From positions 1 to 59,291 of the IMG/VR virus record IMGVR_UViG_3300045996_001841: a stretch of DNA of 59,291 nucleotides. The stretch is one strand, 5' to 3'. The translations under genes were made by a program, and so were the position numbers. The notes beneath the pieces were generated by a model that was not told where the DNA came from, ran no database searches, and was given only the letters and a program-made list of their open reading frames with translations. The stretch is from a virus. Taxonomy: Duplodnaviria > Caudoviricetes. Shown here piece after piece: positions 10,499 through 54,855 of this stretch. Numbering within the stretch: position 1 is the stretch's first letter; every line of letters starts with the position of its first letter.

Positions 10499-10536
10499 AC
10501 GGCGGCATGTCGCCGTCGTAGTGTGAAGGAGTGTGT

Positions 10537-13647: not shown

Positions 13648-13874
13648 CTCCGAAACTGTGGAAGGTCCACCTTGAGTCCGCGGATGGTTCCCGCCGAATC
13701 ATCTACACGCGCTACCTCGGACGCTTCCTTCAGGATTGGCAGACCGGGCGCTTGTATGAATACATCGCGATCGATCTCCATGCTGGCGAGGCCACGGCAC
13801 GGTCCTTGATGGGACCGAGCCATGCGAAAATTGCTCGTTCCCCTGCTCCTGTTGCGCCTCTCCGTCCCCGCTGA
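13644..13874 (+). CDS. Hypothetical protein
   Basis: ATGA coupling (MTPKLWKVHL...). Confidence 0.45.
   Translation: MTPKLWKVHLESADGSRRIIYTRYLGRFLQDWQTGRLYEYIAIDLHAGEATARSLMGPSHAKIARSPAPVAPLRPR
13790..13810 (+). promoter_or_regulatory. sigma54-like -24/-12 promoter (variant -12)
   Basis: GGCCAC-GGCACGGTCCTTGA; predicted +1 near 13821, next to ATG 13822. Confidence 0.5.
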
Positions 13875-29514: not shown

Positions 29515-30138
29515 ATGAAGAAGATCATCGGCGTCGATATCGACGGCGTGTTGGCGGACTTCAATAAGGGCTTCCGCGAAGTCCTGAAGACTGTCTCCGG
29601 CCGCGACTTGTTCAACGGCGAGGTGTGGCCGCCATGCTGGGACTGGCCGACGCACTACGGCTACACGCCGGAGGAGATCGCGGCGGCGTGGCAGGCCGTC
29701 GCCACGAACCCGACCTTCTGGTCCTCCCTCGACCACTACGAGGACGCGCGGCCGATGCTCAAGGCGCTGGTCGCGCAGGTCCGCGAGGAGGACGCCGAGG
29801 TCTACTTCATCACCTCGCGTTACGAGAGCAAGGGCCTGCACGGACAGTCGCTCATGTGGCTGCTCCGCAAGTCCCTCGGGTTCCTCCGTCCCGGCGAAGC
29901 GGTGCTGCCGACCGTGGTGATTGCGCGGGGGAACAAGGGCCTGCTGGCGCAGGGCCTCGGGCTCACGCACTTCATCGACGACAAGCCGGAGAACTGCGTC
30001 AGCGTCGCGCTGGCGAACCCGCGGTGTGTCGTCGTCCTGCTCCGGCGCTCCTACAACCAGGGCCAGGCGTTACAGCTCTGGCAGGACTACAAGATCGTCA
30101 ACGTCGCCAGCCTGTCGGAGTTCGTCGAGGAGTTGTAA
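29515..30138 (+). CDS. HAD-family 5'(3')-deoxyribonucleotidase-like protein
   Basis: GVDIDGVLADF, FITSR, K, FIDDKPEN, YN. Confidence 0.88.
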   Translation: MKKIIGVDIDGVLADFNKGFREVLKTVSGRDLFNGEVWPPCWDWPTHYGYTPEEIAAAWQAVATNPTFWSSLDHYEDARPMLKALVAQVREEDAEVYFITSRYESKGLHGQSLMWLLRKSLGFLRPGEAVLPTVVIARGNKGLLAQGLGLTHFIDDKPENCVSVALANPRCVVVLLRRSYNQGQALQLWQDYKIVNVASLSEFVEEL

Positions 30139-30141
30139 CCG

Positions 30142-30351
30142 GTGCCTCTCCCTACGGATCAAGAACAGTTCGACCGCGCGTTTCAGCGATGGCTGAGGAC
30201 CGGCGGCGTTGACCCCGAGGGCTCCCGGGTGATGTGGGAGCGGTTCTACCGCGGCTTGGACCGACACGTGCCGACGAAGTGCAAACACGGGCTCACGGTT
30301 CTCACGTGCGCCGAATGCAACCTCGAATACTACAAGGGCGGGAACAAATGA
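30142..30351 (+). CDS. Small Cys/His hypothetical protein
   Basis: CKHG...CAEC. Confidence 0.55.
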   Translation: MPLPTDQEQFDRAFQRWLRTGGVDPEGSRVMWERFYRGLDRHVPTKCKHGLTVLTCAECNLEYYKGGNK

Positions 30352-30917
30352 GCGATCCGAAGATTGGGCCCGGCGGCGCGCCGACCCGGGCCACGACCAT
30401 CCCCGAGGACGCAGCCGGGCGGAAGGCGCACCCGGTCGCCAGCGGCGTTCTCGACTACTTCCCTGACGCGCTGGTCGCCGTGGCCGCCGTCTCGTATGCC
30501 GGCAACGAGCAGCACAACCCCGGGCAACCGCTCCATTGGGCGCGCGGGAAGTCGGCCGATGAGTCCGACGCGCTGATGCGCCACTTCCTCCAGCGCGGCA
30601 CGTTGGACACGGACGGGTTCCGCCACTCGGCGAAGATGGCCTGGCGGGCGCTGGCGCTGTTGCAGAAGGAGATCGAGGCGGAGCAGGCTGGCGTGCCGGC
30701 TGAGGGCGTGCTCAACAAGCAGCCGAAGTTCGTGCCACTGCCCGTGGGCGTGCCATTCAGCTCCATCTACCACTGCCCCTGCGGCTCGATCTGCTACAAG
30801 GACGGTGATCTCTCCTACAACGCTCGCACGCAGCTCCTCCACACCTGTTTCGAGGAAACGCGCTCTCTTGAGGGTGTGCGCGACGTCGGTGGCTTCGTGC
30901 CGGGGCGACAGGACTAA
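30348..30917 (+). CDS. dATP/dGTP diphosphohydrolase-domain protein (DUF5664-like)
   Basis: GVLDYFPDALVAVA.VS..GNEQHNPGQPLHWAR...DALMRH...HSAKMAWRALA. Confidence 0.8.
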   Translation: MSDPKIGPGGAPTRATTIPEDAAGRKAHPVASGVLDYFPDALVAVAAVSYAGNEQHNPGQPLHWARGKSADESDALMRHFLQRGTLDTDGFRHSAKMAWRALALLQKEIEAEQAGVPAEGVLNKQPKFVPLPVGVPFSSIYHCPCGSICYKDGDLSYNARTQLLHTCFEETRSLEGVRDVGGFVPGRQD

Positions 30918-31249
30918 TGGGCCGCCACTTCCGCACGGCGGCGCAGCTCGCGCCGGCCGACCACGAGGAGTTCCCCCGCAGTCTCGTCCTGTTCCGCCTC
31001 GAGGCGCAGCGGGAGGCCCGGGCGCTGGTGCGCCTGGCCGCCCGCACAGAGTGCGACCTCGAGGAGCTGCTTGGCGTGCCCCCTCGGATTCGCGAGCACG
31101 TGAAGGCGTTCTGCCGCGCGCATCCCGAGGAGCATCGGCGGTTCGTGCTGGCCTTCCGCTACCGGGCCCTTGTGCTACGATATGTCAGAAAGTTGCTGAA
31201 AGGGGAGGACAATGGCGGAGGAGAAGGACAGACTGTTCCCGAAGTATGA
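30917..31249 (+). CDS. Hypothetical protein
   Basis: TAATG coupling. Confidence 0.6.
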   Translation: MGRHFRTAAQLAPADHEEFPRSLVLFRLEAQREARALVRLAARTECDLEELLGVPPRIREHVKAFCRAHPEEHRRFVLAFRYRALVLRYVRKLLKGEDNGGGEGQTVPEV

Positions 31250-31475
31250 GCAAGTGGACGTCAAGCGCCTCGAGGTCTACTTCCTCGGGGATAAGGCGCA
31301 AACGTTCCCCATCGGGCCTGACGATCGCCTCGTGGACAACCCTCTGCCCGACATCCTCGCACAGATCACACGTGCGGACGGCACCATCGAAACGATCCAC
31401 CACCGCAACGTCTGTTACACCGTGCTCCGCACGGTCAGCGTCAAGCGCAAGGTGACCCCGGAGGAGGGAGCTTAG
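31212..31475 (+). CDS. Hypothetical protein, last gene of the + arm
   Basis: GGAGG SD; stop overlaps the stop of the converging gene. Confidence 0.65.
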   Translation: MAEEKDRLFPKYEQVDVKRLEVYFLGDKAQTFPIGPDDRLVDNPLPDILAQITRADGTIETIHHRNVCYTVLRTVSVKRKVTPEEGA

Positions 31476-34400
31476 CTCCCTCCTACCGGCTTCGTCGCCA
31501 GGATCGTCGAAAGGTCCCCGGACGGCACGTCCTCGAGGACCACCAGGTTCCGGATATACGACACCCAATTGCGGAAGTCCGGTCGCACAACACTGTCTAC
31601 TGACGTGTTGTATTCGGCCCACCACGCTCGAATCGAGTTTTGGTTCGCGTCGCTGATAACAGTGCGCGTGTCGAGCGACGTTTGCAGCCCTGAGAAGATC
31701 GTCACCGTCCCCTGCACTTCATCGTTGACATACATCGAAATCAGGTCGTAGTCATTGACCTTGACCTCGATCTTCACGAAGATGCGGGTCCAGCGGTTCG
31801 GGAAGACGACGAACGTATTGTGCGCACCGGCGCCGCTCGGGCACCCGCCACCGGACCGCGGGCGCAGCGGATCCCGGTGCGCGTTCGGACCCAGCCGGTA
31901 GCCGTCCGAGTCCGCGTAGCTCGCGGGTCCGCACGTGAAGTTGTAGTGCCGCATGTTGATGGTGCCCACATGCAGGGCCGGGTTGAACGCAGCCGTCTGA
32001 CAGCACGCCGAGCCGCTGTTGTAGGCAATGCGCGGCTCAGCCCAAATCGTCCCTCGGGAAGCGTTACCGCTCGAAATCTGGAACGTCTTGTGCGTATCGA
32101 ACCCGCTGAACGCCGCAGCTCCGAGGAAGCTGCTTGTCATGTAGACGTCCCACGTAATGAGGTAGGTGTGCTCCTCGTTGGAAGGCGTCTCAATCGGGAC
32201 CGTCAACTGCGTCGGCAGGCTGTTCGTCCCGAGCTGCACGTCCTCACCGCTGCTATGCGAGGCCGCCGTCGTGCCGAAACGCCCGCGCGACACGTAGACG
32301 CTGTTGCCGCTCCGCACGGACCCATCCGGGCCCTGCACAACCGTCATGATCTCGTTGTCGATCTTGAGAGCGCGGTCCTTCCGATACGGGTTGATCGTGT
32401 CCGAGGACGTGGCGATGGGGATTAGCGTGTCGTCCGCATCGATCGCCCCGGTCAGCGAGGCGATGTTCGCCACCCACGGCGGAATAAGAACTTTCGCGGC
32501 GTCCTGCTTGTTCGGATCTGTATCGCCAGCAGGATTATAGGTTACGTGAGCACTAATTCCCGGCGGGCTCTGCTGATACGTGATCAACTGGTTCTGCCAC
32601 CGCGGAGACGACTGCGAGGTCTGCCCGGCGAGCGGACGCAGACTGACGCAGAGCGGAATCCCATCGGTCGTGTTCTGGTAGACATCGCCCCGCGCGCACA
32701 GTTGCTCGAAGAAGGTGTGCGGCCCCGCCGATCCCGCCGCGTTGATCGTGATCGAGAACGCCTGCGTGTCCGAGTCCGCCGCGGAGTCCGTGGCGAGCGC
32801 CGTCCACGAGCAGGTGCCGGCGTTGGTCGGCGTGCCGCTGATCGTGCCCGAGCTGCTGAGCGTGAGGCCGGCGCACTGCGCGTCCCCATCGTTGAGCGTC
32901 GTGCCGGCGCCGTTGTTCGACCAGGTAATCGGCGCCACGCCGCCGGTCGATACCAACTGGTGCCCGTAGGTGGAGTCCTCGACGGCGGAAGGTAGCGTCG
33001 CCGGCGACGTGATCACGAGGTCGGGCACGCTGTAGGTGACCGTAATGCTGTCGGAGGCGTCGTTCCCCGCCTCGTCCTCGGCCGTGCAGGTGATGATGTT
33101 CGTGCCCACCTGTAGCGCGATGCTACGGGACCAGCTCGTCGTGCCCGTCGCGTTGCCCGTGCCGCCGGCGGAGTTGACGCAGAACACGCGCGTCACGGCG
33201 ACGTTATCGCTGGCCGTGCCGGCGATGGTCGTGGGTGTCGTGCTGGTCGGGAAGTTGCTCCCACCGTTCGTCGTGATCGTAATCGTCGGGTCTGTCGAGT
33301 CCGTAGGCGTGAACGTGACCGTCAGCACGTCGACGTCATCGTTCGCCGCCGCGTCGGCCGCGGTCACCGTGATCGTGTTCGCCCCGCTCCCGAGGGTCGT
33401 GATGTTGAAGGACCACGCAGTCGTGCCCGTCGCCGTGCCGCTGGCCGGCGTGCACGTCGGGCAGGTCCAGGTCACCTCGTCGACTCCGGTGTTGTCCGCC
33501 GCCGTGCCGGCGACCGTCAGGGCCGCCGTCGACGTCGCAAACGTGGTCGCCGTGGTCGGAGAGGTGATCGACACCGTGGGGTCCTCGGTGTCGCCGCCGG
33601 CGCGCGTGATGATAAGAGTGTCCGAGCGGCACACTGCGGAGATGTTGCAGGCCGTCACGACGATCGTGTTCGTGCCGACCCCGAGGGTCAGGCCGCCGGC
33701 CGAGACGTCCTGGTCGACCACCGTGAAGTCGTCGACCGTGTTCGAGGGGGTGATTTGGTCCGCCGCCGCGGTCAGTGCGCCCCATCCGAGGCCGACGTCC
33801 ACCGCGTTGTCGCAAAAGCTGTCCGTCGCCGTCGTCCGCGACACGCCGTTCTGCGTCACCGTGAGCGAGGTGCCGTTGATCTCGGCCACGATCACGTCGC
33901 CGATGTTCACGTCCCCGGTATAGGGGGTGCCGAGCGTCGTCGGTGTGCCGGCCACCCGCTTGAACAGCTCGAGGGTGTTGGTCGCCGCGTTCGGACGCCA
34001 CACGACGCCGCAGTAGTTGGAGGCGTCCTGATACCCGAAAATGAGCGCCGTGCTGCGTGCCCCGTTCGACGCCAAGCCGGTGATGCGGGCGGACACCGTG
34101 TAGTGCGTGCCGGTGATCTCAACGGCCGGCGTTGCCATGTAGAGGAGAATCGACGTGCCGCTCGAGTCGGGGGACGCGGGGCGCACGTAGTCGTCCGCGT
34201 GGTTCGACACGGAGTTCGTGCCGGCGGTGTCGACGGCCTCCGCCCAACTGGTGCCGGTCGGCGTGGGCGTGTGCGAGGCCAGGTCCACGGTGCTCGCGGT
34301 GTTGAAGTTGTCCTCGAGCACGACGGTCGGCGTCGTGCCGCCGCTGATCGTCCACGCCTCGGTGCCGCTCGCGTCGCCGCTGGTGGGCGTGCACTCGGCA

Positions 34401-34639
34401 CACGTCCACTCAACCGTCGCGATGCCGGAGGTGTCGATCGCCGTGCCGGCGATCGTGACCGTCGCCTCGGCTGTGGAGAAGGACGGATCAATGGTCGGCG
34501 TGGAGATGGTGACGGACGGGACCGCGTGCAGTCGATCGTAACGGCCCTTGAACCGGGAGCGCAGGCTGGATTCCTGCGCAGTGGCGCCGCTGAGCGCAAG
34601 TGTCAGCAGCGTCACCAGAACAGCAGCTTTACTCCGCAT
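31472..34639 (-). CDS. Signal-peptide-bearing multi-Ig-domain protein (putative appendage/adhesin)
   Basis: 1055 aa; ...ALSGATA|Q; repeated P.V.IT.PT...GTA.D..GV..V.W...G.A.GT..W Ig units, a He_PIG-like unit and lectin-like beta domains. Confidence 0.8.
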   Translation of the reverse strand: MRSKAAVLVTLLTLALSGATAQESSLRSRFKGRYDRLHAVPSVTISTPTIDPSFSTAEATVTIAGTAIDTSGIATVEWTCAECTPTSGDASGTEAWTISGGTTPTVVLEDNFNTASTVDLASHTPTPTGTSWAEAVDTAGTNSVSNHADDYVRPASPDSSGTSILLYMATPAVEITGTHYTVSARITGLASNGARSTALIFGYQDASNYCGVVWRPNAATNTLELFKRVAGTPTTLGTPYTGDVNIGDVIVAEINGTSLTVTQNGVSRTTATDSFCDNAVDVGLGWGALTAAADQITPSNTVDDFTVVDQDVSAGGLTLGVGTNTIVVTACNISAVCRSDTLIITRAGGDTEDPTVSITSPTTATTFATSTAALTVAGTAADNTGVDEVTWTCPTCTPASGTATGTTAWSFNITTLGSGANTITVTAADAAANDDVDVLTVTFTPTDSTDPTITITTNGGSNFPTSTTPTTIAGTASDNVAVTRVFCVNSAGGTGNATGTTSWSRSIALQVGTNIITCTAEDEAGNDASDSITVTYSVPDLVITSPATLPSAVEDSTYGHQLVSTGGVAPITWSNNGAGTTLNDGDAQCAGLTLSSSGTISGTPTNAGTCSWTALATDSAADSDTQAFSITINAAGSAGPHTFFEQLCARGDVYQNTTDGIPLCVSLRPLAGQTSQSSPRWQNQLITYQQSPPGISAHVTYNPAGDTDPNKQDAAKVLIPPWVANIASLTGAIDADDTLIPIATSSDTINPYRKDRALKIDNEIMTVVQGPDGSVRSGNSVYVSRGRFGTTAASHSSGEDVQLGTNSLPTQLTVPIETPSNEEHTYLITWDVYMTSSFLGAAAFSGFDTHKTFQISSGNASRGTIWAEPRIAYNSGSACCQTAAFNPALHVGTINMRHYNFTCGPASYADSDGYRLGPNAHRDPLRPRSGGGCPSGAGAHNTFVVFPNRWTRIFVKIEVKVNDYDLISMYVNDEVQGTVTIFSGLQTSLDTRTVISDANQNSIRAWWAEYNTSVDSVVRPDFRNWVSYIRNLVVLEDVPSGDLSTILATKPVGGS

Positions 34640-35409
34640 TACCGGGGTTCTCCAATGCCAAGGACGGTCAGTTTTTTCGTGCCGCCGGCCGCAGCCGAGG
34701 CCATTTTGTAAGCCGCCATGCCCGTCGTCACGAATCGATTTGAGGTTGTCACGCCGTTTGCCGTGTAGGTGCCCGTCGCGGACACGATCTTATATTGCGT
34801 GCCGCACTCGACTCCGCCGGATCCGCCGGCGATCAGTGTATAGGTGACCCCTGCGGTGTAAGTGGAGGTCGCGTTCGCGCACATTTGCACAACAATCAAG
34901 TCGTCAGCAAAGGTGGTCGTCGGCGCGACCGAGACGTCGTGCACCGTGCCAGAGGGATCCGTCGATCCGCTGGCGGTCACGTCGAGCGCACTCGACGTCG
35001 CCATTCCGCTGACTTCCATCGCCGTGATGTTCAGGAACGACGTGCCCGTGTTGATCGTGACCGTGACGGTCGTCTGCCCGCCCGCTGTGATCTGGCACGA
35101 CCAGATATACGCGCGCACGTCGACGGAGCCGTTGGAGTGCTCATTCTGCACGTCCGGACTCGCGCCGCTGCACACGTTCGTGCCGTCCGTGCTCGGCGTC
35201 AGGGTGCGGGTGGCGTGCAACAGACCGCCGCTCACCACGAGGAGGTTCCCCGCCGTGAGGCCGCTGACCGTGACGGAGCACGTCGACGCGCCAGAGCAGC
35301 GGTTGGTCTGCGACTGGACGACCGTGATGGCCGCCTCGGTCGGCGCGGCCCACAGCCACGCCGCCAGGAGCGTCAGGACGATCCGCTTACTTGTAGTTGA
35401 CCATGCCAT
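34639..35409 (-). CDS. Signal-peptide-bearing beta-rich virion-like protein
   Basis: ...WAAPTEA|AITVVQS...TAGNLLVV; C-terminal LTVLGIG. Confidence 0.75.
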   Translation of the reverse strand: MAWSTTSKRIVLTLLAAWLWAAPTEAAITVVQSQTNRCSGASTCSVTVSGLTAGNLLVVSGGLLHATRTLTPSTDGTNVCSGASPDVQNEHSNGSVDVRAYIWSCQITAGGQTTVTVTINTGTSFLNITAMEVSGMATSSALDVTASGSTDPSGTVHDVSVAPTTTFADDLIVVQMCANATSTYTAGVTYTLIAGGSGGVECGTQYKIVSATGTYTANGVTTSNRFVTTGMAAYKMASAAAGGTKKLTVLGIGEPR

Positions 35410-36985
35410 AGACACCTACCGCTGCGTTCGTGTTGTCCGTGCTGGTGGGGCCGCCGGTGAGGCAATACGAGATCCCCGTGCTGAAGCTGATGCCGACCGG
35501 CAAGGACACCGTGACGCCGGCGCCCGAGGTCGACGCGGGGACCGGAATCGTGGTGACGTAGCCGGTCGCCGAGCTGCACGTCGGCGCAGACGCGGTGTTA
35601 TACAGCCGCAGGTAGTAGAGCGTCGCGGTCGTGTTGATCAGCGTGATCCCGTAGACGTTGCCGGCCGAGGCCTTGACGTTGGTCGAGTTCGTGCTGGCCG
35701 CCGAGGCGACGTTGAAGGTGTCCGCGCCGTTCGCCGTCTGCGCGTCAAGCTGGACGCGGCCGGCGAGCGCCGACCCGGCGCCGAGTTCCACCGACAGCTC
35801 GTTGGCCGCCGTGACGTTGGCCCCGCGCTCGTTCGACGGATCGCGGATCTGGATGTAGCCGACGCCGTTCGCCGAGCCGCGCCAGCTCACCGAGTTCCCC
35901 TCGGTCACGGTGCCGACCGAGGCGTCGTCGAACCGGAGCATGGTCTGTGGACCGGTGGTTAGCGCTACGTTATCGTAAATGGCGTCGGCCGAGAGGTTCG
36001 TTTCGATGTTCGCCAGGGAGTTCTGCGCAGCCTCGGTCGCCACCTCGATCGAGGTGAGGGTCGTCTCTACGCCGTCGAGGTGCCCGATGATCGTGGTCTG
36101 GTTCGCGGCCGAGGACGCGCCAGTCGGGAGCGTGATCGTGCCCGAGACGTTGTTGATGTTCCAGGTGCCCGACTGCGTGACCCCGCCGATGACGTTCGCA
36201 CCGGTCGGCAGCGCCGAGTCGACGACCGCGCTGACCCACAGCCGGCCGGCCGACATCTGCAACGACTCGTAATCGCCGTCCGCACCCGAGGTGTTGGCGG
36301 GGGTCGCGGTGCGCCGCGCGAAGGCGGGCGTGCCGAGGTCCGCGTTGGCCGAGGCGACGTCCTCTGCCACCGACGTGCCGCCCGAGCCGCCGAAGCTGCT
36401 GATCTGGTTGCCGCTCGAGTCGACGATGGCGACCGCGGGAGCGCGGTGCGAGCCGGCCGAGACGCCGGTGACGCCGATCAGGTTGCCGCCCACGTTGATG
36501 CCCGTGTAGCTGGCGTCCGCCGGGACCGTCGAACCCGTCGCGCTGGCCGCCGCGTTGGCCCCGCCGCCAGCGGCGCCCGAGGAGGCCCCGCCTCCGGTCG
36601 TCGTGCCGAGCAGGACCACGGTGGCGGTGCCGCTCGTCCACGCCGTCGAACGTGCCCGAATGCGCCGGCAGCCGGCCACCGCGCCCGTCCAGACGCCCGT
36701 CGACGTCAAGCTGGTCGCCGCCGTCGTGCTGTTCGTCGGGGTGATGCGGATGGCCTGGTAGTTGGAGTTGTCGATCGAGCACTCGACCACGATCGTGCCG
36801 GTGAAGGTGCCGGTGACCTGAAGCCCCAGCGTGCCAGCGCCCTGCGCGTTCGAGATCAGCACCGACTCGTCGTTGGCGTCGATGTCTCCCGAATCGTGGA
36901 ACGACCAGAGCTTGACCGTTGACTGCGCCGACGCGGGCGCGGCGAGCGCCAGGACCAGACCGATCAGCAGAATGAGTTTCTTCAT
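35387..36985 (-). CDS. Signal-peptide-bearing tail fibre/appendage-like protein
   Basis: GGAGGA SD; MKKLILLIGLVLALAAPASA|Q; Gly/Ser/Thr-rich; C-terminal STNVKASAGNVYG...YLRLYN...GISFSTGISY domain. Confidence 0.75.
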   Translation of the reverse strand: MKKLILLIGLVLALAAPASAQSTVKLWSFHDSGDIDANDESVLISNAQGAGTLGLQVTGTFTGTIVVECSIDNSNYQAIRITPTNSTTAATSLTSTGVWTGAVAGCRRIRARSTAWTSGTATVVLLGTTTGGGASSGAAGGGANAAASATGSTVPADASYTGINVGGNLIGVTGVSAGSHRAPAVAIVDSSGNQISSFGGSGGTSVAEDVASANADLGTPAFARRTATPANTSGADGDYESLQMSAGRLWVSAVVDSALPTGANVIGGVTQSGTWNINNVSGTITLPTGASSAANQTTIIGHLDGVETTLTSIEVATEAAQNSLANIETNLSADAIYDNVALTTGPQTMLRFDDASVGTVTEGNSVSWRGSANGVGYIQIRDPSNERGANVTAANELSVELGAGSALAGRVQLDAQTANGADTFNVASAASTNSTNVKASAGNVYGITLINTTATLYYLRLYNTASAPTCSSATGYVTTIPVPASTSGAGVTVSLPVGISFSTGISYCLTGGPTSTDNTNAAVGVYGMVNYK

Positions 36986-37209
36986 GACTGTCCTCCGGGC
37001 CGCCAGCGTGCCATAGCCGCCACGCCCCATCCTTTCAGCTTTTGCCATTGCGCCGACGCTGCGACGGAGAAGCCCTTGCCGAGGGACTTACTACCCTCGA
37101 TCTTGACCGCCACGTCCTGCCCTTCCGCCTTCTCAACCTTCACCTCGACGCCCTCCTCGAGGGCGCTGAGATCCTTGAACGCTTTGTCGGTGAAGATGGG
37201 CTCAGTCAC
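36982..37209 (-). CDS. Hypothetical protein
   Basis: 75 aa, coupled to neighbours. Confidence 0.6.
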   Translation of the reverse strand: MTEPIFTDKAFKDLSALEEGVEVKVEKAEGQDVAVKIEGSKSLGKGFSVAASAQWQKLKGWGVAAMARWRPGGQS

Positions 37210-37567
37210 GGTAGGCCGCCCACCCGAACATCCGGAGCGCCGACCAGCGGAGGCCTGCGCGGAAGTCGGTCATCCCGAGGAGTTTGAGCGCTTCGCGATA
37301 CACCGCGTCCGCGTCGCCACGGGTCAGATTCATGGAATCGCCGTAGCGGTAGAGGAAATCGTGAACCACTCCAGCCTCGGGGTAGTCCGTCTTCGGCGCG
37401 ACGATCCACGCCAGGCGGGGCATCGAGTTGAGGTCGCACTCGAACCCGGCTGGGACCGTCACCAGCTTGCCGAGGTGGGCTGAGTAGTAGCGGAACCTCC
37501 GCTCCAACCGCCATCGGCGGCCCCTATCCAGCGGCTCCAGGTAAAGACGGTCGAGGAACTTGGACAT
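37202..37567 (-). CDS. DUF1353 family protein
   Basis: VPAGFECDLNSMPR...AGVVHDFLY...RGDAD..YREAL...LRMFG. Confidence 0.85.
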   Translation of the reverse strand: MSKFLDRLYLEPLDRGRRWRLERRFRYYSAHLGKLVTVPAGFECDLNSMPRLAWIVAPKTDYPEAGVVHDFLYRYGDSMNLTRGDADAVYREALKLLGMTDFRAGLRWSALRMFGWAAYRD

Positions 37568-37572
37568 GATGG

Positions 37573-37752
37573 TTACTCAGGGCTGATGACACGATCGAGT
37601 TTGCCCTCGACGCGGACCAACCAGTCCTTCATATCCTGCCGACTCTGTTCCAAGTTTGCAATGCGCGGCTCCAAACGAGCGAGGTAAACGACAACCCCGA
37701 GCGCGGGGCCCCCGATGGTAACGGCCAGGCCGATGGCAGTGGTAATCTCCAT
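37573..37752 (-). CDS. Holin-like small membrane protein (1 TM plus coiled coil)
   Basis: AAAGGA SD; N-terminal TM; C-terminal ...VEGKLDRV. Confidence 0.55.
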   Translation of the reverse strand: MEITTAIGLAVTIGGPALGVVVYLARLEPRIANLEQSRQDMKDWLVRVEGKLDRVISPE

Positions 37753-37763
37753 GATCGGTTCCT

Positions 37764-40724
37764 TTACTGCTTCTTCGGCACGAACGGCCGGTTGACGATC
37801 GCCACTTTTCCGTGGCGTTTGAGCATGTCCTCGAGTTGCCGTTTCCGGTCCCGTTCTTCCGAAGCGGCCACGGATTCCAGGTCGACCTGCTGCGGCTTCA
37901 TGCCCGTCAGGAGCTTGAGCCACTTCGCGGCGCCCTGGTAGTCCCCACCGAACATCTGATCCAGCGTGTTGAATCCGCGAGCCGTGAACAGGCTGCGCGC
38001 AAGCAGCAGTCGCTCGGGGTCGGCGACATACTGGATTCGCTTCTGCCCCGGCACCGGCTTCGCCTTGCCATCCGGTCCGGTCATGAACACCGGCTTCTCG
38101 ACCTCCTTGATTTTCAGGAAGTCCTTCACCGGCTGCGGTGCCGTCTTGTATTCGCGAGCGTCGTAGACGTCCTTCAGATCCTTCTGGCGGAACGAGTCCT
38201 TGCCGAACGCCAGCTCCAGCGTCAGCTTCATCGGCGGCGTGAGCTGCGAGATCGCCCGCAGCGCCGGCGTGCGCGAGACGTCGAACTGGTCGGCGAACTG
38301 CTCGACCGGGGTGCCGAAGTTGGCGAGATACTGCTTGACGCCCGTCTCCGGGTCGCCGCCCATCTTGATCGCGAACGAGCTGCGGAGGTAGGCCGGCAGA
38401 CCCTCGCGCTCCTCGCCCGAGGCGTGCTCGCCCATGTTGTCGAACGCCTTCATGACGTTCGAGATCCGCTCCGGGTGCTCGCCAAGCGTCCGCAGTTGCA
38501 GCTCCGCGTTCTTCCGCGTGAACGAGTAGAACGGCACCAGCCGGCGCATGACCTTACTCTCGAACTTCGTCAGCGCGCGGTAGTCGAAGCCGGCCTTGGT
38601 CGCGATCTCGAGCGCCTGCTCCACAGTCTTTCCCTGGCGCAGCGCCGTGATATACGCGGTCGCTTTCTGCTGCGATTCGATGAACGCGCCCATCGCCTGC
38701 GCGGCCCGGAAGTGCGGCGCCTTGCTGCTCAGCGGGTTCTTCGAGGTGGTTTTGGTGAACGCCTCGTCCGCGGTCGCGTTCGCGATGTCGGCGACGTAGC
38801 TGTCCGAGGTGCCGAAGCGCTTGACGAACGGCGCCGTGACCGTCTCCATTGGGACTTCACGACCGCGCATCGCAATGGTCGCACCCTTGGCTCCCTCCGG
38901 TTTGGCAATGGACTTGGCGATCCGCATCCCGTCCGCCACGTTGTCGGGGCGGAGCGCCGCAGCGCCGAGCACTTCGTAGTTCTGCACCAGGCCGGACAGG
39001 TAGTTGCGTGCGTGGAAGGCGGGGAACAGACCGGTGACAGACCGCTTGAACAACGACTGCACGGCGTCGAAGCCCGTCGCCTTCGCGAGCTTGTCCACCG
39101 TCGTCATTTCGTTGTTCACCAGGTTGTCGAGGAAGCGCTTGTCGTTCTCGAGGAAGTAGCCCACCGGCTTGCCGAAGCCGCCCTTCTCCTTCATCAGGAA
39201 GTAGCCGGCCTTGCGCGCGGCGTCCTCGTTGGCAAACTCAGTGAGCGGCTTGCCCACCTCGTCGACCAGCTCCTTGAGGGTCTGTCGCGTGGTGGCATCC
39301 TTGGCGATCTCAAACTCGCGGCGCGCGAAGGCCTCGGCCGGGTTGCGGACCAGTTCGTCGTCCTTCAGCAGCGCCTTGAACTGTTTCTTGTAGCCCTCGG
39401 ATCCGACGCGCACGCCGGCCGTGCCCTCGAAGAACTTCTTCACGCGGTCCTTCGCGAGGGAGGGGAAGTAGGTTTCGTAGGGGTCGGCGATCTCGCCCAT
39501 CTGCGCAAACTCTTTGTTGCGCGTGATCTGCTCGTCGATCGTCTTCTGCACCACCGGGTCCGGCGACTTCGCGACCTCGGTCGCGCGGCGCTTGCCCTCG
39601 AGGCGGAACGCCGCGTTGGTTTGCGCCGCCTCGATCTGCTCGGCGCCAACCTTGTTCGCCATTTCGTGCGCGGTGCCGAGGCGCGCGTCTGCCTGTGCGG
39701 TCGGCCGCAGACCGGGCGTCTTGTCGTCCAGTCCTCGGGCCGCAGCGGCAAGCTCCAGACCAATGCCCCGTTCGCCGACTGCCTGGTCGGCCTTCTTCAG
39801 CGCCGTGCCCTCGAGGAGCTTCTGCGCCGACTCGCCGGCTTCGCGCATTTCCAACTCGGCGTGCTTGCCCGAGAGCAGCTTCTCGACGAACTCCTCGCGC
39901 TGCTCCGGGTTCAGGCCCTTGATCAGCCGTTCGACGTTCTCGCGAACGATCTTGTCTTTGATCTGCGCGAGCGCACTCTGAAGCTCGAGGGCCTTGTTGC
40001 CGACGCCCTTCGAGGTGCCGTAGGCGTAGACGAACGCATTCCCCGCGGCGTCCTTCGCCTTGGTCAACCCATCGGTCACGTAGTCCACCATCTTCGCGGT
40101 CACCTGCGGGGCGACCTTCGATCCGGCCTTCACAGCGCCGCGCGTGGCCGCGCCTCCCACTGCACTTGCCGCATCGACGCCGCTCTTGACCAAGCGCCCG
40201 CCGACATAGGTGGTTGGATCCAGGGCAATGTCAGCCGCAGTGCCGGTAATGAAGTTCGCCACGCCGGACAGCGGGACCTTCGTGCCGCCGAAGCCGCCGA
40301 GGTTTTGAGGCACCGTGATGTCGAGGCCCGACACCTGTGGGAGGATGTCGCCGAAGGTGCGACGGTTGGGGTTCTGGTCGATCCCTGTCGCGGCCGACTT
40401 CAAGTCATTGTAGATGGTGGAGAGATAGGCCTTTCCGCCCTGGAGCACAGACCCGGTGTCCATCCCCGTCGCCACAGCTTCCGCCGGGTTGAACGAGCCG
40501 AGCGCCTTGCCGAGGCGGTGCAGCAGCGAAAGCGTCTTCGGCTGGTTGGTGATCTCTTGCGCTTCGTTCCCGAGGCCTTCCTGGTGGGCGAGCGTCGACA
40601 GCCCTTCGATGGTGTTCAAGTCCGCCTTCTCGGCAGGCGCACCTCCGCGCGTCAGCCCGGCGAAGCTCGGGCCACCGGATCCGCCACTGGTCAGCCCGGC
40701 GAAGTTGAACTGCTGCTCCGGCAT
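37764..40724 (-). CDS. Large internal virion / DNA ejection protein
   Basis: 986 aa, helical, last of the ejection cluster; FHARNY.SG, FDY, VPFYSF motifs. Confidence 0.75.
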   Translation of the reverse strand: MPEQQFNFAGLTSGGSGGPSFAGLTRGGAPAEKADLNTIEGLSTLAHQEGLGNEAQEITNQPKTLSLLHRLGKALGSFNPAEAVATGMDTGSVLQGGKAYLSTIYNDLKSAATGIDQNPNRRTFGDILPQVSGLDITVPQNLGGFGGTKVPLSGVANFITGTAADIALDPTTYVGGRLVKSGVDAASAVGGAATRGAVKAGSKVAPQVTAKMVDYVTDGLTKAKDAAGNAFVYAYGTSKGVGNKALELQSALAQIKDKIVRENVERLIKGLNPEQREEFVEKLLSGKHAELEMREAGESAQKLLEGTALKKADQAVGERGIGLELAAAARGLDDKTPGLRPTAQADARLGTAHEMANKVGAEQIEAAQTNAAFRLEGKRRATEVAKSPDPVVQKTIDEQITRNKEFAQMGEIADPYETYFPSLAKDRVKKFFEGTAGVRVGSEGYKKQFKALLKDDELVRNPAEAFARREFEIAKDATTRQTLKELVDEVGKPLTEFANEDAARKAGYFLMKEKGGFGKPVGYFLENDKRFLDNLVNNEMTTVDKLAKATGFDAVQSLFKRSVTGLFPAFHARNYLSGLVQNYEVLGAAALRPDNVADGMRIAKSIAKPEGAKGATIAMRGREVPMETVTAPFVKRFGTSDSYVADIANATADEAFTKTTSKNPLSSKAPHFRAAQAMGAFIESQQKATAYITALRQGKTVEQALEIATKAGFDYRALTKFESKVMRRLVPFYSFTRKNAELQLRTLGEHPERISNVMKAFDNMGEHASGEEREGLPAYLRSSFAIKMGGDPETGVKQYLANFGTPVEQFADQFDVSRTPALRAISQLTPPMKLTLELAFGKDSFRQKDLKDVYDAREYKTAPQPVKDFLKIKEVEKPVFMTGPDGKAKPVPGQKRIQYVADPERLLLARSLFTARGFNTLDQMFGGDYQGAAKWLKLLTGMKPQQVDLESVAASEERDRKRQLEDMLKRHGKVAIVNRPFVPKKQ

Positions 40725-43820: not shown

Positions 43821-44072
43821 TTACGTCACGATCCCGAGCTGCGCCAGAATGGCGGCTTGCTGCTCGGGCGTGAGCTTTGTGAAGTTCTCCGCCATTTGGT
43901 TCTTGACCCGCTCCTCGTAACCGCGCACCAGCGCCTCGAGGTAGTCGCGTGTTTTCGTCTGGACATACTCGGCGATGGTCAACGTCGTGCCGTTGTCGGC
44001 GTTGTGGCGCGCGACCGCGGCGATCAGCGCTCGCTCGTGTCGTGCATCCGTCGTAATCGTGTAGTCCGGCAT
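43821..44072 (-). CDS. Small hypothetical protein (possible fibre chaperone)
   Basis: TAATG-coupled to the fibre-like gene. Confidence 0.6.
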   Translation of the reverse strand: MPDYTITTDARHERALIAAVARHNADNGTTLTIAEYVQTKTRDYLEALVRGYEERVKNQMAENFTKLTPEQQAAILAQLGIVT

Positions 44073-45019
44073 TACTGCACCTCAAACTGCGCGATCCCGG
44101 TGACCGCGGTGTTGTTCGCGCTCGCGGTCCAGGCCGTCAGGTCGCGCTTTCGGATGATCATTGTCGTGCCGCCGGCGACCACAACCCACGTGCCAGAATC
44201 ACGAACGCCGTTGTCCGAGATGTCGAGGGCTGCGGCACCCATCTGACGCGCCGCAACAAACCCTCCAGGGATCGCCAACAACAGGTCGGTGCCGAGCACG
44301 CCGCCGACCGACGTCGCCGCCAAGGAGAACGCCACCTTGAGCGTCTTCCCGAGCAACGTATACGCGAACGTCACCTGGTCGCCCGAGGCAACCGTCCACG
44401 TCATGCCGCCGGACCCGGTGAAGTTGCCGGCCGCGTGCGTGACCGCGGTCCAATACCCAGCCGCCGCCGCGCGCCCACGCTCGAACATCCCGTTCTGCAC
44501 GTAGAGGCTGTCGATACGATCCGAACTCACCCCGAGGTTGCCGTCGCCGAGGACCAGTCCCTTGCCGCTGTGTGGCAGCAGGAGATACTTCCCGAGGACC
44601 GAGCTGTAAGCGACGCGCACCACCGGGAACGAGTTACGCACCGAGTCCGTGGCGATCTTGTCGGTGATCTGAAACGCCACCTCCGCGGCAGACACGAACC
44701 CGGGCGGGCTGCCGACGTGCACCGCCCACCCACGATCCTCCGCACTCTTGAACGCGACGCCAACATTGTCCGCGCCGACGACATCGTTCAGGTTGTCGGA
44801 GATTTCCACCTGTCCGAACTGTCCGGACCCCGCAGCCTCGAGGTCCCCTTCGGCTACAATGTCCCCCGTCACCGTTACGCTATCTGCCGTAACGGCTGCG
44901 TGACTTCCGTCGTCATGGTGCTCGAGACTCGCCCACCCCTGAATCAGGGCGACCAGTGACTCCAGCTCCGCCCGCGTCGTGGCATCCAGGCGCTCGGCGA
45001 AGCGCAGCGCGATCAGCAT
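44072..45019 (-). CDS. Tail fibre/needle-like protein (no signal peptide)
   Basis: EHHDDGSH motif; C-terminal YTLLGKTLKV.F...L.IP knob domain; follows the nozzle gene. Confidence 0.7.
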   Translation of the reverse strand: MLIALRFAERLDATTRAELESLVALIQGWASLEHHDDGSHAAVTADSVTVTGDIVAEGDLEAAGSGQFGQVEISDNLNDVVGADNVGVAFKSAEDRGWAVHVGSPPGFVSAAEVAFQITDKIATDSVRNSFPVVRVAYSSVLGKYLLLPHSGKGLVLGDGNLGVSSDRIDSLYVQNGMFERGRAAAAGYWTAVTHAAGNFTGSGGMTWTVASGDQVTFAYTLLGKTLKVAFSLAATSVGGVLGTDLLLAIPGGFVAARQMGAAALDISDNGVRDSGTWVVVAGGTTMIIRKRDLTAWTASANNTAVTGIAQFEVQ

Positions 45020-51963: not shown

Positions 51964-54855
51964 TTACCGGATGATCCGCATCCGGAACGGACCGTTCGCC
52001 AACGCGACTTGGAAGAAGTCGAAGTTCCCCACCGCACCGGTGACGCCGCCGTTGGTGTCCATCACGAGGCGCCACGTCTGCTCTCCGGGCTGGAGCACCA
52101 CCCCGGACTTAACCAACAGTTGCCAGCTTTGCCACCCGCCCGTGTTCGGCACCGTCATCGGCCCGGTCACGTCCTCACCGTCGACCTCGAGGTGGAAGGT
52201 TCCTCCTGCGCCATCGGAGGCGATCATGAACGAGAAGTTGTAGCGCCCGCCCGATCCCACGTCGACCGTATACTGGAGCCATTCGCCGGCGCCGACGAAC
52301 GACAGGGTGTAACCGCCGCCAGGTCCTTCGGAGACAGAAATGTCCACCTCCGTGTCGCGGTATTCCCCACCCTCATTCTCCGCAGAATTGTCGGCGTAAG
52401 CCGAGCCTGAACCGCCTTCGTCGAAGTCCTCGCACTGCACGGTCCCGGGGATGTCCTCCGGCGTGCCACCGAAGGGTGACGTGCCCGAGTTGTCGCCGGA
52501 GAGGGCGATGTCGGTCCACTCCTCGATCGCGTCGATGTCGGCGCCGATGTCGGCGCCATCCGTGCCGGCTTGGAACAACGGGCTGCCGCTCGTCACGCGG
52601 AAGTTCTCGCTCGCGTAGTCGACGAAGTAAGCCTCGAACGTCGTCTGGTCGGGCGTGAGACAGTTCGTGCAGTCGGTATAGAACGAGGAGTTGGCCCCTT
52701 GGATGACGTTATGGGCCCACTCCTTACTCGCGCCACTGGAGATCACCGCCCACGTGTCGTTCCCGTTCGGGCTCGAGAACCCGCTCAGTCCCTCGTAGTT
52801 GAACCCGAACCCAGTGCCCGGCGGATCCCCGTCGACCCCGTGCATGAAGATGTTGTTCTTGATCTTCAGGTTCTCGTGCGTCCACATTTCATCGCACGAA
52901 ATGTTGGCCGAGGAGGTCACGACGAAGTAACCGCGGTTCGAGGAGCTGCTGATGAACGTGTTGTGATCGAACGTGATGTTCGTGCCGGCGAAGATGTTCC
53001 GTCCGCACTCGGAGGGCTTCATGTTCCCGCCCGGCATGTAGACCGTCCAGATGTAGTGCCCCTGGTCGGACCCGAGCTGATAGAACAGGTTGTTCTGAAC
53101 CGTGATGTTCTCGGCCACGCCCGCGGGCCGGGTGCCCGTCTCGGACTGCGCAACCGAGATCGCGCCGGGGCCCATGCGGATCATGTTGTTGCGGAACGTC
53201 AGGTTGCGCGTGACCGCCGATACCATCTGATCGTCGTTCTTCAGGTGCAGCGTGATCGCCGCACTCTGCTGCCCGACCACGTTCCACCACGTCTGCTCGA
53301 ACAGGTTCCCCTCGATCAGGCACGACGACCCCAAGGTCGCACCGCACTCCTTCGTCTCGAACAGGTTCTTGATCGACCACTCGTTCCCGTCCGTCGTCGG
53401 CACGTCTTCGCTGGTGCCCGCGTCGCCGACGTCGGTGAACGTGCACGTGCCCGTGCCGGCGGAGCACCCGGCATCCGCCGCGCTGATCGAGAACCGGATG
53501 TTCTGCCCACCCGAGGTCCGTCCGTAGATGTAATACTCGCCGTCGTAGGTGGGGGTCACGTTCGCGGAGGCGTTCCACGTCAGCTCGCAGGCGTTGTTCA
53601 CGCCGGACACCACGCAGCTCCCCTCCGCGCTCGCCGTCGAGCGGAAGACCTGCGCCTGATCGACGTTGTGCCGCGCGACGATCTTGTAGTGGTAGGTCGC
53701 GTCCGCCAGCGATCCACCTGTGGTGCCGGCGCCGGACGGCGTTCCCGGCGTGGGCACCACCGGGCCGCGCCAGGCCAACGGTTTGAGAAGGTGGTTCTTC
53801 TGGAACGTCAACGATCCGACGTGCAGACTCCACCGCACCATCGCGCCCACCGAAGGCGTGCCGGTCAGCGCGGGTGTCACCGTGATCGTCGTGCCGACGA
53901 TCGACGTCACCTTCGCGGACTGCTCCACCCCGAGGGTGGGGCCTCCAACACCGATCCACTGCCCGACCTCAAGTTCGTCGACGTGCCCGACCGTGAACTC
54001 GCTGGCCGAGGCCGCCGAACTCACCGTCGTCGACTCGCGCGCAATGACGTCGAAGCCGCCGATAAGGACGTTCTCGCTCGAGCCTTCGAGGTAGTTGTTG
54101 ATGATCGTCACCGGCCCCGGGGTGTTGGAGACGGTGATCGCCTGGCCGTCGTTCTGGTGTGTCTTACAATCCTTGAAGTAGTTGTTGGTGACCAGGATGT
54201 CTTTCGCGGCAATGTTCATGCAGCGAAGCTGCCCGCTCACCGGGTCGCCGTAGACGACGTTCTGATCGAAGATGATGTTCGAGGGGACCTTTGCTTTGGT
54301 GTCCTGGTGGATCGCGGATCCCGCGAATGAGATGTCCCAATACCCGAACAGGATCAGCGTGCCGCCACCATAGAGGTTGGAGGTGACGCCAATGTGCTGC
54401 ACCTTCCACCACTTCGCGACGCACGGCGGCGAGCCGCACTCCCCGGGCAGCTCCGTGCGCAGCGCGGGCGTGTTGTTGACGACGACCTTCAGCTTGGCGA
54501 GCGTTGGCAGGTAGGCCGGCGTGATCCGGACGTTCGCCGCAGGGAACTCGGAGTCGTCCAACAGGAAACCGGACGCATCGACGCCCGTGCGCAGCGTGAT
54601 GTAACACGTCGCGTCGTTCGCCGGGCACGACTTGGACGGCAGCACGAACTGCCCTTCGTAGGTGATGTTCTCCTCGAGCAGCACGAAGTCGCCCGGGACC
54701 GCATCGTCGAGGGCGGACTGGAGCTGCGCGTTCGTGTAGGTCGCATCGCCACCAGCCGACGTGCCGCTGTTGTAGACTTTCCGCACCGTCTGCGCGGTGG
54801 CCGGGGCCGCGCAGACGATCGTCAGGAGCAGAACAACCAGTGTGCGATGCAGCAT
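51964..54855 (-). CDS. Secreted right-handed beta-helix protein with C-terminal CBM6-like domain
   Basis: Signal ...CAAPATA|Q; NNY/GNL/NNL/HNT beta-helix rungs; PGTVQCEDFDEGG...GEWLQYTV...PNTGGWQSW. Confidence 0.85.
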   Translation of the reverse strand: MLHRTLVVLLLTIVCAAPATAQTVRKVYNSGTSAGGDATYTNAQLQSALDDAVPGDFVLLEENITYEGQFVLPSKSCPANDATCYITLRTGVDASGFLLDDSEFPAANVRITPAYLPTLAKLKVVVNNTPALRTELPGECGSPPCVAKWWKVQHIGVTSNLYGGGTLILFGYWDISFAGSAIHQDTKAKVPSNIIFDQNVVYGDPVSGQLRCMNIAAKDILVTNNYFKDCKTHQNDGQAITVSNTPGPVTIINNYLEGSSENVLIGGFDVIARESTTVSSAASASEFTVGHVDELEVGQWIGVGGPTLGVEQSAKVTSIVGTTITVTPALTGTPSVGAMVRWSLHVGSLTFQKNHLLKPLAWRGPVVPTPGTPSGAGTTGGSLADATYHYKIVARHNVDQAQVFRSTASAEGSCVVSGVNNACELTWNASANVTPTYDGEYYIYGRTSGGQNIRFSISAADAGCSAGTGTCTFTDVGDAGTSEDVPTTDGNEWSIKNLFETKECGATLGSSCLIEGNLFEQTWWNVVGQQSAAITLHLKNDDQMVSAVTRNLTFRNNMIRMGPGAISVAQSETGTRPAGVAENITVQNNLFYQLGSDQGHYIWTVYMPGGNMKPSECGRNIFAGTNITFDHNTFISSSSNRGYFVVTSSANISCDEMWTHENLKIKNNIFMHGVDGDPPGTGFGFNYEGLSGFSSPNGNDTWAVISSGASKEWAHNVIQGANSSFYTDCTNCLTPDQTTFEAYFVDYASENFRVTSGSPLFQAGTDGADIGADIDAIEEWTDIALSGDNSGTSPFGGTPEDIPGTVQCEDFDEGGSGSAYADNSAENEGGEYRDTEVDISVSEGPGGGYTLSFVGAGEWLQYTVDVGSGGRYNFSFMIASDGAGGTFHLEVDGEDVTGPMTVPNTGGWQSWQLLVKSGVVLQPGEQTWRLVMDTNGGVTGAVGNFDFFQVALANGPFRMRIIR

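Follow-up and report, generated by a model that had tools for sequence, protein, structure and literature searches.

What might be the role of three proteins with export signals that are encoded by the last late genes of a tailed phage? The question arises from a window of 59,291 nucleotides (nt), the complete IMG/VR virus record IMGVR_UViG_3300045996_001841 (Duplodnaviria; Caudoviricetes), whose minus-strand late operon closes with three genes, here designated P0001, P0002, and P0003, each predicted to encode a protein with a cleavable leader for the general secretory (Sec) pathway. Folding and assembly of the late proteins of tailed phages are assigned to the reducing cytoplasm, and a large fiber-like late family that combines a Sec leader with conserved disulfide pairs would break this rule. 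Sec export, leader cleavage, and disulfide bonding of P0001 to P0003 are well supported by the sequences of these proteins and their homologues. As to function, our leading reading, which we place slightly short of an even chance, is that they are exported late proteins that act on the cell envelope or the matrix around it and do not become part of virions.

Export signals of P0001, P0002, and P0003

The P0001 gene (35387..36985, minus strand; ATG at 36985) encodes an exported fiber-like protein of 532 amino acids (aa), the P0002 gene (34639..35409, minus strand) a small exported beta-rich protein of 256 aa from its ATG or 258 aa from a GTG at 35415, and the P0003 gene (31472..34639, minus strand) an exported multidomain protein of 1,055 aa. 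All three look coding, since their G+C contents at third codon positions (0.82 to 0.91) are well above those at second positions (0.57 to 0.59). By eye, the leaders were read as MKKLILLIGLVLALAAPASA/Q in P0001 (aa 1 to 20, ASA/Q; 36926..36985), MAWSTTSKRIVLTLLAAWLWAAPTEA/A in P0002 (aa 1 to 26, TEA/A; 35332 to 35409), and MRSKAAVLVTLLTLALSGATA/Q in P0003 (aa 1 to 21, ATA/Q; 34577 to 34639), all on the minus strand and with the slash marking the predicted cleavage site. In the pattern of Sec and signal peptidase I (SPase I) substrates, whose hydrophobic core spans ~10 to 15 residues, a basic n-region precedes a core free of charged residues in each leader, positions -3 and -1 are occupied by small residues, and none of the three contains a lipobox cysteine or a twin arginine. 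All three also pass our heuristic leader filter.

The starts that include the leaders are preceded by ribosome-binding sites of their own. The P0001 ATG overlaps the stop codon of an upstream 75-aa open reading frame (ORF) as ATGA and has GGAGGA 5 nt upstream; the P0002 ATG lies 23 nt inside the 3' end of the P0001 gene; and the P0002/P0003 junction is TAATG, with GGAGAA upstream. The three last genes of the late operon are thus coupled, as the initial annotation had stated.

Leaders recur in the homologues, in which they were called with the same crude filter or by inspection. For P0001, a cutoff E value of 0.001 gave at least 628 relatives; among the 120 listed relatives that were filtered, 84 passed, and most of the leaderless ones begin with a fiber-like "MADN..." sequence. 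A leader was present at the N terminus of 35 of 38 inspected full-length or C-terminal P0003 relatives. For P0002, 19 relatives were found and 17 aligned, four of which (P0125, P0129, P0135, and P0140) carry a leader, and the first residues of the leaderless relatives, "MAIAFVQS," coincide exactly with those predicted to follow cleavage in P0002 (TEA/AITVVQSQ). Across distant homologues, the leaders are kept while the mature N termini vary. Because they recur in this way, the leaders are more than a product of chance, and because leader-bearing and leaderless members align, the leader is a separable add-on to homologous proteins, which neither a misplaced start nor chance hydrophobicity would give.

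The objection that these leaders are chance hydrophobic N termini, or that the true starts lie downstream of them, could draw on the crudeness of the filter on which the calls rest, as it flagged five doubtful ORFs among the 73 of this genome. We nevertheless consider it very improbable. Downstream starts, which the initial annotation had named among the findings that would refute its reading, do not agree with the ribosome-binding sites in front of the leader-containing starts or with the position at which the leaderless P0002 relatives begin, and chance does not account for the retention of leaders in distant homologues or for the even cysteine counts and the leader-associated cysteine pair described below. 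The classic signal peptides initially assigned to all three proteins are therefore retained.

Directly after its leader, P0003 has a stretch (aa 22 to 40; approximately 34520 to 34576) that is disordered in the structure model. Most full-length P0003 relatives have a basic motif, R-x-R-(W/F)-x-x-R, after the leader (e.g., LRLRRRS, KLRGRWGSR, and LRSRFKGRY), which might serve in sorting, belong to a propeptide, or bind the envelope.

Cysteine pairs and their association with the leader

The numbers of cysteines in P0001, P0002, and P0003 are 4, 6, and 18, respectively, all of them even. The closely spaced cysteine motifs reported initially were all found: WTCAECT (aa 78 to 84), ACNISAVC (aa 330 to 337), and WTCPTCT (aa 391 to 397) in P0003 and CSGASTC (aa 40 to 46) in P0002. 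In the P0003 family, the mature parts contain 6 to 26 cysteines, with even counts in 35 of 36 proteins, and the pairs conserved among 35 homologues are C210/C276 (31 each), C393/C396 (26 and 23), and C589/C610 (20 each). Leader-bearing members of the P0001 family have even counts in 78 of 85 cases and 1.46 cysteines per 100 aa, versus 12 of 31 cases and 0.32 cysteines per 100 aa for leaderless members.

The same association was seen with a profile of the conserved C-terminal domain of P0001 (C-domain), which holds one cysteine pair. Of the 101 proteins found with the profile, 78 have both the leader and the pair and 16 have neither. The pair occurs without a detected leader in four proteins: two start with a non-ATG codon and seem truncated at the 5' end, another carries a clipped leader, and the leader of the fourth escaped the filter; the leader occurs without the pair in three, one of which is a false call. 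The leaderless, cysteine-less set includes the sole cultured-phage relatives found, namely, those of Caulobacter phages KSC, S2B, and Cr30 and of Octadecabacter virus DB2. Given the export signals and the paired cysteines, P0001 to P0003 most likely fold outside the cytoplasm.

Domain structure of P0001

The AlphaFold2 model of P0001 has a mean predicted local distance difference test (pLDDT) score of 70 and consists of two confident beta-sandwiches (aa 28 to 128 and 420 to 532) flanking a poorly modeled Gly/Ser/Thr-rich middle. The N-terminal beta-sandwich (aa 24 to 129; 36599..36916, minus strand; pLDDT, ~91 to 98) contains Cys69 and Cys106 and has the fold of the XepA C-domain and YomS. In the VIA comparison, it matched the XepA C-domain (6i56_B) with a Z score of 15.4 and a root mean square deviation (rmsd) of 1.7 over 105 aa at 20% identity, and YomS (6i5o_A) with a Z score of 14.2 and an rmsd of 2.1 over 108 aa; the next row had a Z score of 9.9, and the Foldseek E value was 4.6e-6. 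Identity in the structural alignment with the two proteins is 15 to 20%, and at the sequence level no Pfam family (at E values up to 0.1) and no PHROG linked P0001 to XepA or YomS. The PHROGs likewise contained no family for P0001, P0002, or P0003.

The sandwich is followed by a Gly/Ser/Thr-rich shaft (aa 160 to 419; 35729..36508, minus strand) with low pLDDT in the monomer and a coiled coil at about aa 300 to 331. The conserved C-terminal beta-sandwich (aa 420 to 532; 35390..35728, minus strand; pLDDT, >88), with Cys470 and Cys508, shows 60 to 80% identity across homologues. Its fold search gave nothing above a Z score of 7.7 (nucleoplasmin cores), and as this match reflects only a common arrangement, we do not assign the C-domain to a fold family.

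P0003, a candidate glycan-active protein, and P0002

The P0003 model (1,055 residues; mean pLDDT, 82) comprises a series of beta-rich domains. A concanavalin A (ConA)-like carbohydrate-binding module (CBM) at aa 101 to 313 (33701..34339, minus strand), nested between immunoglobulin (Ig)-like strands, has the beta-sandwich of lectins and glucanases in the model and is a predicted sugar-binding module. Its VIA wide matches were the receptor-binding domain of TM4 gp23 (9n6a_A; Z score, 18.9), CBM66 (Z score, 17.6), and the baseplate of mycobacteriophage Douge (8zdo_a; Z score, 17.3). Three tandem Ig-like domains follow (aa 354 to 633; 32741..33580, minus strand), which correspond in Pfam to Big_7 (aa 354 to 425; 23.7 bits, just under the cutoff of 24.1), Glucodextran_B (aa 451 to 536; 27.2 bits versus a cutoff of 27), and He_PIG (aa 543 to 633; 29.2 bits versus a cutoff of 24). 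The C-terminal part (aa 640 to 1055; 31475..32722, minus strand) appears to be a polysaccharide lyase (PL)-like beta-jelly-roll. In the VIA wide comparison, aa 651 to 1050 of the 1,055-residue model matched the PL14 alginate lyase 5gmt_B (Z score, 14.0 over 218 aa), the glucuronan lyase 2zzj_A (Z score, 12.8 over 207 aa), and a glycoside hydrolase of family GH131 (Z score, 12.6 over 234 aa). Atlas language-model leads from this domain to polysaccharide lyase families were weak (0.80), no Pfam lyase family was matched by P0003, and no peptidoglycan hydrolase domain was found in P0001 to P0003 in the Pfam and PHROG scans. Judged by its model, P0003 reads as a secreted glycan-binding, lyase-like enzyme with a candidate activity of this kind. 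In tblastn searches, neither its C-terminal domain nor P0002 matched cultured phages, and a search with P0003 in five metagenome-assembled genomes (MAGs) gave a single match at the level of the Ig domains and nothing else.

A small domain with the motif KIDNEIM ... V-RG-FGTTAA-H is inserted in the C-terminal part of P0003 at approximately aa 715 to 805 (approximately 32225 to 32497). This insertion alone was matched by 10 viral and ~30 metagenome loci and looks like a mobile subdomain of phage proteins.

P0002 belongs to a family whose Atlas clusters (at 0.96 to 0.97) are 91 to 95% viral, and its fold recurs as an appendage on large bacterial surface proteins. Many members of the family end in L-(L/M)-G-(V/I)-G after a Gly-rich stretch (e.g., VLGIGE, LLLGVGE, LVGVGC, and GLMGVG; approximately 34642 to 34700 in P0002), and this terminal motif may be a docking strand or a tag.

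When the whole P0003 model was searched with Foldseek, only tandem-Ig adhesins were retrieved, with SraP and RTX adhesins at the top. This adhesin-like Ig string with its lectin module, along with the genuine export signals, would suit proteins of the infected cell's envelope that are retained in the periplasm or displayed on the surface and mask receptors, exclude superinfecting phages, or serve as adhesins, with no role after lysis. Leader-bearing sortase substrates and outer membrane proteins are encoded by huge phages, for which surface display has been proposed (bioRxiv 10.64898/2026.10.24.761521). We regard a purely envelope-bound role as improbable here. The three genes lie at the very end of the late operon, and no promoter-like sites were found in the region from 30800 to 38200; synthesis of their products would thus be expected just ahead of lysis, a late time for exclusion to start. 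Moreover, the P0001 to P0003 sequences showed neither an anchor or lipobox nor a beta-barrel or sorting signal, and nothing indicates passage through the outer membrane.

Relatives and their gene contexts

The P0001 family has hundreds of metagenomic members, almost all on viral contigs. Its C-domain was found at 48 loci in viral contigs and at only 6 loci among 185,579 cellular species genomes, in Acidobacteriaceae, Phenylobacterium, Magnetococcales, and other proteobacterial MAGs, all of which represent Gram-negative lineages. At several viral and MAG loci, a leader-bearing P0001 homologue is followed by one or two more leader-bearing ORFs. These downstream ORFs were considered as P0002 or P0003 relatives, which was rejected when BLAST gave no match. 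Ten ORFs, nine of them downstream ORFs and one a 1,047-aa fiber homologue, were compared with Pfam: one exceeded the cutoff (Gly_rich_2) and one had a subthreshold ConA-like match.

The leaderless relatives in cultured phages lie close to lysis and packaging genes. In Caulobacter phage KSC, gp046 directly precedes a signal-arrest-release (SAR) endolysin and the spanins, far from the annotated tail fiber. In S2B, the gene order is tail fiber, two ORFs, a DUF1353 gene, a small membrane ORF, small terminase, gp004c, one ORF, and large terminase, which echoes the order in the window (DUF1353 gene, small ORF, and then P0001). The 277-aa gp004c aligns to both end domains of P0001, so it is likely to have two beta-sandwiches. 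A DUF1353 gene as a constant companion of the leader-bearing fiber was a hypothesis that had to be dropped, because none was found in five other viral records with such a fiber.

In Caulobacter phage Cr30, the leaderless C-domain relative lies with a 45-aa membrane ORF and a "beta-1,4 xylanase" gene in a small plus-strand island (4269 to 6502) among minus-strand genes. The pairing with the xylanase gene is a second link of the C-domain to glycan-active enzymes.

Other leader-bearing ORFs of the phage

Six further leader-bearing ORFs were recognized by eye at 146 to 544 (minus strand), 9128 to 9499, 10531 to 11529, 11557 to 12606, and 13822 to 15180 (all plus strand), and 51964 to 54855 (minus strand). 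Together with P0001 to P0003, the nine ORFs encode 4,194 aa and occupy 12,582 nt, or 21.2% of the 59,291 nt, so that one phage devotes about one-fifth of its genome to proteins with predicted export signals; the figures initially given (about 12.6 kb and 21%) were thus accurate. The count of nine is a by-eye reading: the heuristic filter flagged 13 of 73 ORFs, comprising eight of the nine and five apparent false positives.

The four leader-bearing ORFs between 9128 and 15180 (123, 332, 349, and 452 aa; plus strand) lie in the early/middle region. The 332-aa product is a matrixin-type M10 metallopeptidase (E value, 1.5e-12), and the 123-, 349-, and 452-aa products matched no Pfam or PHROG family. 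The 963-aa ORF at 51964 to 54855 (minus strand; leader MLHRTLVVLLLTIVCAAPATA/Q) has a C-terminal CBM6 (E value, 5.7e-18), with matches to CBM6 chains in the Protein Data Bank (PDB) down to an E value of 1e-24, and a weak right-handed beta-helix match below the cutoff (E value, 9e-4). It lies between portal-sized and scaffold-like ORFs of the head module, an odd place for an exported glycan-binding protein.

Role of the exported proteins

Our preference for exported proteins that act outside the virion has several grounds. Only one fold match is strong, and its target is a prophage protein that is exported and not part of virions; the leaderless cultured-phage relatives adjoin lysis and packaging genes and not the fiber slot; P0003 has the architecture of a secreted enzyme that acts on glycans; the phage exports many other proteins, such as the M10 peptidase and the CBM6 protein; and a leaderless, fiber-like 315-aa ORF (44072 to 45019) follows the nozzle-like gene.

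According to this reading, each protein would be made with a cleavable SPase I leader, cross the inner membrane of a Gram-negative host, and fold beyond it with disulfide bonds. In the models, P0001 would be a trimeric fiber with a XepA/YomS-type sandwich, a shaft of coiled coil and Gly/Ser/Thr-rich sequence, and a disulfide-bearing C-terminal knob; P0002 would be a small beta-rich domain; and P0003 would be an Ig string with a ConA-like module and a C-terminal lyase-like jelly-roll. The proteins would accumulate in the periplasm late in infection, where they may bind or cut envelope glycans (nascent O-antigen, capsule, exopolysaccharide, or S-layer anchor). Membrane breakage, to which the product of the upstream DUF1353 gene (phospholipase A2 class) may contribute, would then free stable, oxidized glycan-binding or depolymerizing proteins that could clear matrix and receptors around the burst. 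The M10 peptidase and the beta-helix/CBM6 protein would fit a phage-encoded exported tool set. Phage-made glycan-binding or glycan-cutting proteins that are oxidized and stable could also have practical use.

A number of observations weigh against this reading, and many of them speak for a rival reading, in which P0001, perhaps with P0002 and P0003, is a virion part that matures in the periplasm, joins tail-bearing capsids when the compartments merge through holin action and lysis, and docks via the N-terminal beta-sandwich. The genes occupy a T7-like tail fiber slot, after the internal proteins and at the end of the structural operon, and are translationally coupled. The P0001 shaft matches leaderless giant fiber-like ORFs (1,000 to 2,300 aa) in IMG/VR viral contigs. 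Residues 300 to 532 were modeled in three copies, the only copy number used, and gave a predicted trimer that scored 0.78, against 0.00 for the best of three controls; in this model, a coiled coil with heptad-spaced contacts is joined by intertwined strands and a knob. In calibration, 20 of 30 solved pairs and 1 of 23 single chains attained the mark; the runs agreed in at least 87% of their contacts, and the partner pLDDT was at least 78. The term "tail-fiber-like," initially applied to all three proteins, is borne out for P0001 by this shaft and trimer. Two related viral records, 98% and 100% complete, contain the C-domain just once, in the protein that bears the leader. The N-domain fold is also common to capsid cement and turret proteins, so binding of P0001 to virions is conceivable, and the ConA-like module of P0003 is closest to the phage receptor-binding and baseplate proteins of TM4 and Douge. 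On a 5-kb metagenome contig, a P0003 relative adjoins homologues of the adaptor gene and of a 146-aa gene of this phage; the P0003 family is therefore phage-borne, too.

Other points against our preferred reading concern its mechanism and its parallels. In Gram-negative hosts, a Sec leader takes a protein as far as the periplasm and not beyond the outer membrane. DUF1353 genes were found in none of the five other records mentioned above, and no function or mechanism is established for XepA itself (PMC6834076). On the C-domain tree, the leader changes four times and the cysteine pair twice, with two independent contrasts; with so few changes, the association between leader and cysteine pair is largely the inheritance of one clade. 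The parity of the cysteine counts is independent of this caveat. Independent coevolution of leader and cysteine pair was dropped as a claim, as two independent pairs give too little power.

We still consider incorporation into virions unlikely, if well worth keeping in view. No tailed phage known to us assembles with virion parts matured in the periplasm, and the literature search found no such case. The best fold match, XepA, is reported to be absent from mature PBSX particles (PMC6834076). In cultured phages, the leaderless relatives are encoded apart from the annotated tail fiber, no recognizable virion attachment domain was found, and the leaderless 315-aa ORF provides a fiber-like candidate. 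Leader-bearing ORFs, including that for the M10 peptidase, also occur in the early region, so export appears to be a general habit of this phage and not specific to fibers.

Hence, the interpretation offered in the initial annotation survives in part. Export and periplasmic disulfide bonding agree with the conserved leaders and with the paired, leader-associated cysteines, whereas for attachment to virions at lysis and for a surface filament, the XepA fold, the contexts of the relatives, the build of P0003, and the 315-aa ORF point elsewhere. The broader proposal that a widespread group of tailed phages of Gram-negative hosts adds Sec-exported, periplasmically disulfide-bonded fibers or receptor-binding proteins to complete particles at lysis is, in our estimate, likewise doubtful. 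Periplasmic fiber maturation, if true, would add a new route to the modes of assembly known for Caudoviricetes, and the locus raises the question of whether such maturation of virion parts is possible.

Genome organization and neighboring genes

The window has a direct terminal repeat of 127 bp, a G+C content of ~64%, and ~73 ORFs according to a codon-position screen. Genes on the plus strand extend from ~3.2 to 31.5 kb; on the minus strand, the late operon starts at 59.2 kb and ends at 31,472. Among the late genes, that for the large terminase (phrog_979; E value, 4.2e-39) is followed by those for the major head protein (phrog_9953; E value, 3.7e-23), a SU10-type adaptor (Pfam; E value, 1.8e-11), and a nozzle-sized protein of 621 aa and then by several unassigned internal-protein-sized ORFs, including one of 986 aa, all on the minus strand. 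This gene layout is of the podovirus type.

The coupled run that ends in the three exported genes starts with the gene for the 121-aa DUF1353 protein (37202..37567, minus strand; Pfam E value, 1.4e-18, 66.7 bits versus a cutoff of 22.5; phrog_1158 E value, 7.3e-29). Its stop codon overlaps the GTG of the 75-aa ORF (36982..37209, minus strand), which is coupled to the P0001 gene via the ATGA mentioned above and belongs to neither a Pfam nor a PHROG family. Upstream of the DUF1353 gene, a small ORF (37573 to 37752) encodes a single membrane helix and a coiled coil. This ORF and S2B gp006c, the small membrane ORF of that phage, were considered as XhlA-like, which was rejected after Pfam gave no such match. 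Among the 40 of 73 ORFs that were scanned against Pfam or the PHROGs, no endolysin, holin, or spanin family was recognized.

At the other end of the run, a perfect 9-bp inverted repeat, GGAGGGAGC-TAA-GCTCCCTCC (31463..31483), has the P0003 stop codon as its loop and marks the meeting point of two convergent operons, as the plus-strand operon ends there too. This repeat, which lacks a T run and was for that reason missed by the terminator scan, probably acts as a terminator in both directions.

Close relatives of this phage are almost absent from the collections searched. In blastn, the region gave no matches to GenBank phages; the capsid protein found a single viral locus (42% identity), and the 986-aa protein found no viral loci. 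Neither the 621-aa nor the 315-aa ORF matched PDB sequences, and the 315-aa ORF had no tblastn match in cultured phages.

Two further regions stand apart. In the left 7 kb (1 to 7000), the G+C content is 0.57 to 0.61, versus 0.63 to 0.68 elsewhere, and the codon-position bias is weaker. On the plus strand, an ORF matching the N-terminal dATP/dGTP diphosphohydrolase domain (30234 to 30917; PF18909; E value, 9.9e-10) adjoins one for an NT5C-type 5'-nucleotidase (29515 to 30138; E value, 2e-10). Enzymes of the dATP/dGTP diphosphohydrolase type and nucleotidases accompany nonstandard bases in some phage genomes.

Comparison with known systems

Tail fibers are the first obvious comparison. P0001 resembles them in its position at the operon end, the homology of its Gly/Ser/Thr shaft, and its predicted trimeric coiled coil and knob, and P0003 has a ConA-like module like those of mycobacteriophage receptor-binding proteins. 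Unlike tail fibers, which are trimeric, leaderless, and assembled in the cytoplasm, P0001 has a cleavable Sec leader and paired cysteines and lacks a recognizable virion-attaching N-domain. Its conserved part is also the C-terminal knob, whereas fiber tips are usually the variable part. Our literature search yielded no account of Sec-exported fiber-like proteins of tailed phages, which does not in itself exclude their existence.

Late proteins that are outside the cytoplasm before lysis by means of the host Sec machinery are known among the endolysins, such as the Sec-exported or SAR-exported Lys44 of fOg44 and Lyz of P1, as mentioned in the XepA report (PMC6834076). As with these endolysins and their leaderless, lesion-dependent relatives, the P0001 and P0002 families pair leader-bearing with leaderless members. 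The difference lies in the products, which in P0001 to P0003 are fiber-like, lectin-like, or lyase-like and not recognizable peptidoglycan hydrolases. For the DUF1353 protein, the founding member of the family, TtaP, has phospholipase A2 activity and is related to prophage DUF1353 proteins, and its authors expect other members to share this activity (PMC11525133).

In its modeled combination of CBM-like, Ig-like, and PL14/PL20/GH131-like jelly-roll domains, P0003 resembles the group of tailspikes, free phage depolymerases, and secreted bacterial polysaccharide lyases with CBM and Ig linkers, as does the 963-aa ORF, with CBM6 and a weak beta-helix match. The phage depolymerases that we know of are virion-borne or soluble copies of virion proteins and have no leaders.

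The closest parallel is provided by XepA (also named PBSX "exported protein" or XkdY) and YomS of the Bacillus subtilis prophages PBSX and SPbeta, respectively, whose fold is shared by the P0001 N-domain. In the XepA report, which PMC12494034 cites, the protein is described as late, exported beyond the membrane, and cytotoxic, with the shape of a pentameric dumbbell (PMC6834076). The genes are comparable in being late, located after the tail fiber region, and near lysis functions, and XepA (279 aa) is close in size to the short relative gp004c of S2B (277 aa). XepA and YomS differ from P0001 in being pentamers without a classical leader and in having a Gram-positive host, and P0001 differs from both in its Sec leader, its long and predictedly trimeric shaft, and a different C-domain with a cysteine pair. 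P0001 to P0003 would combine free depolymerases with an equivalent of XepA that depends on Sec and acts in Gram-negative hosts, and the exported prophage proteins of the XepA type thereby gain a counterpart that can be tested.

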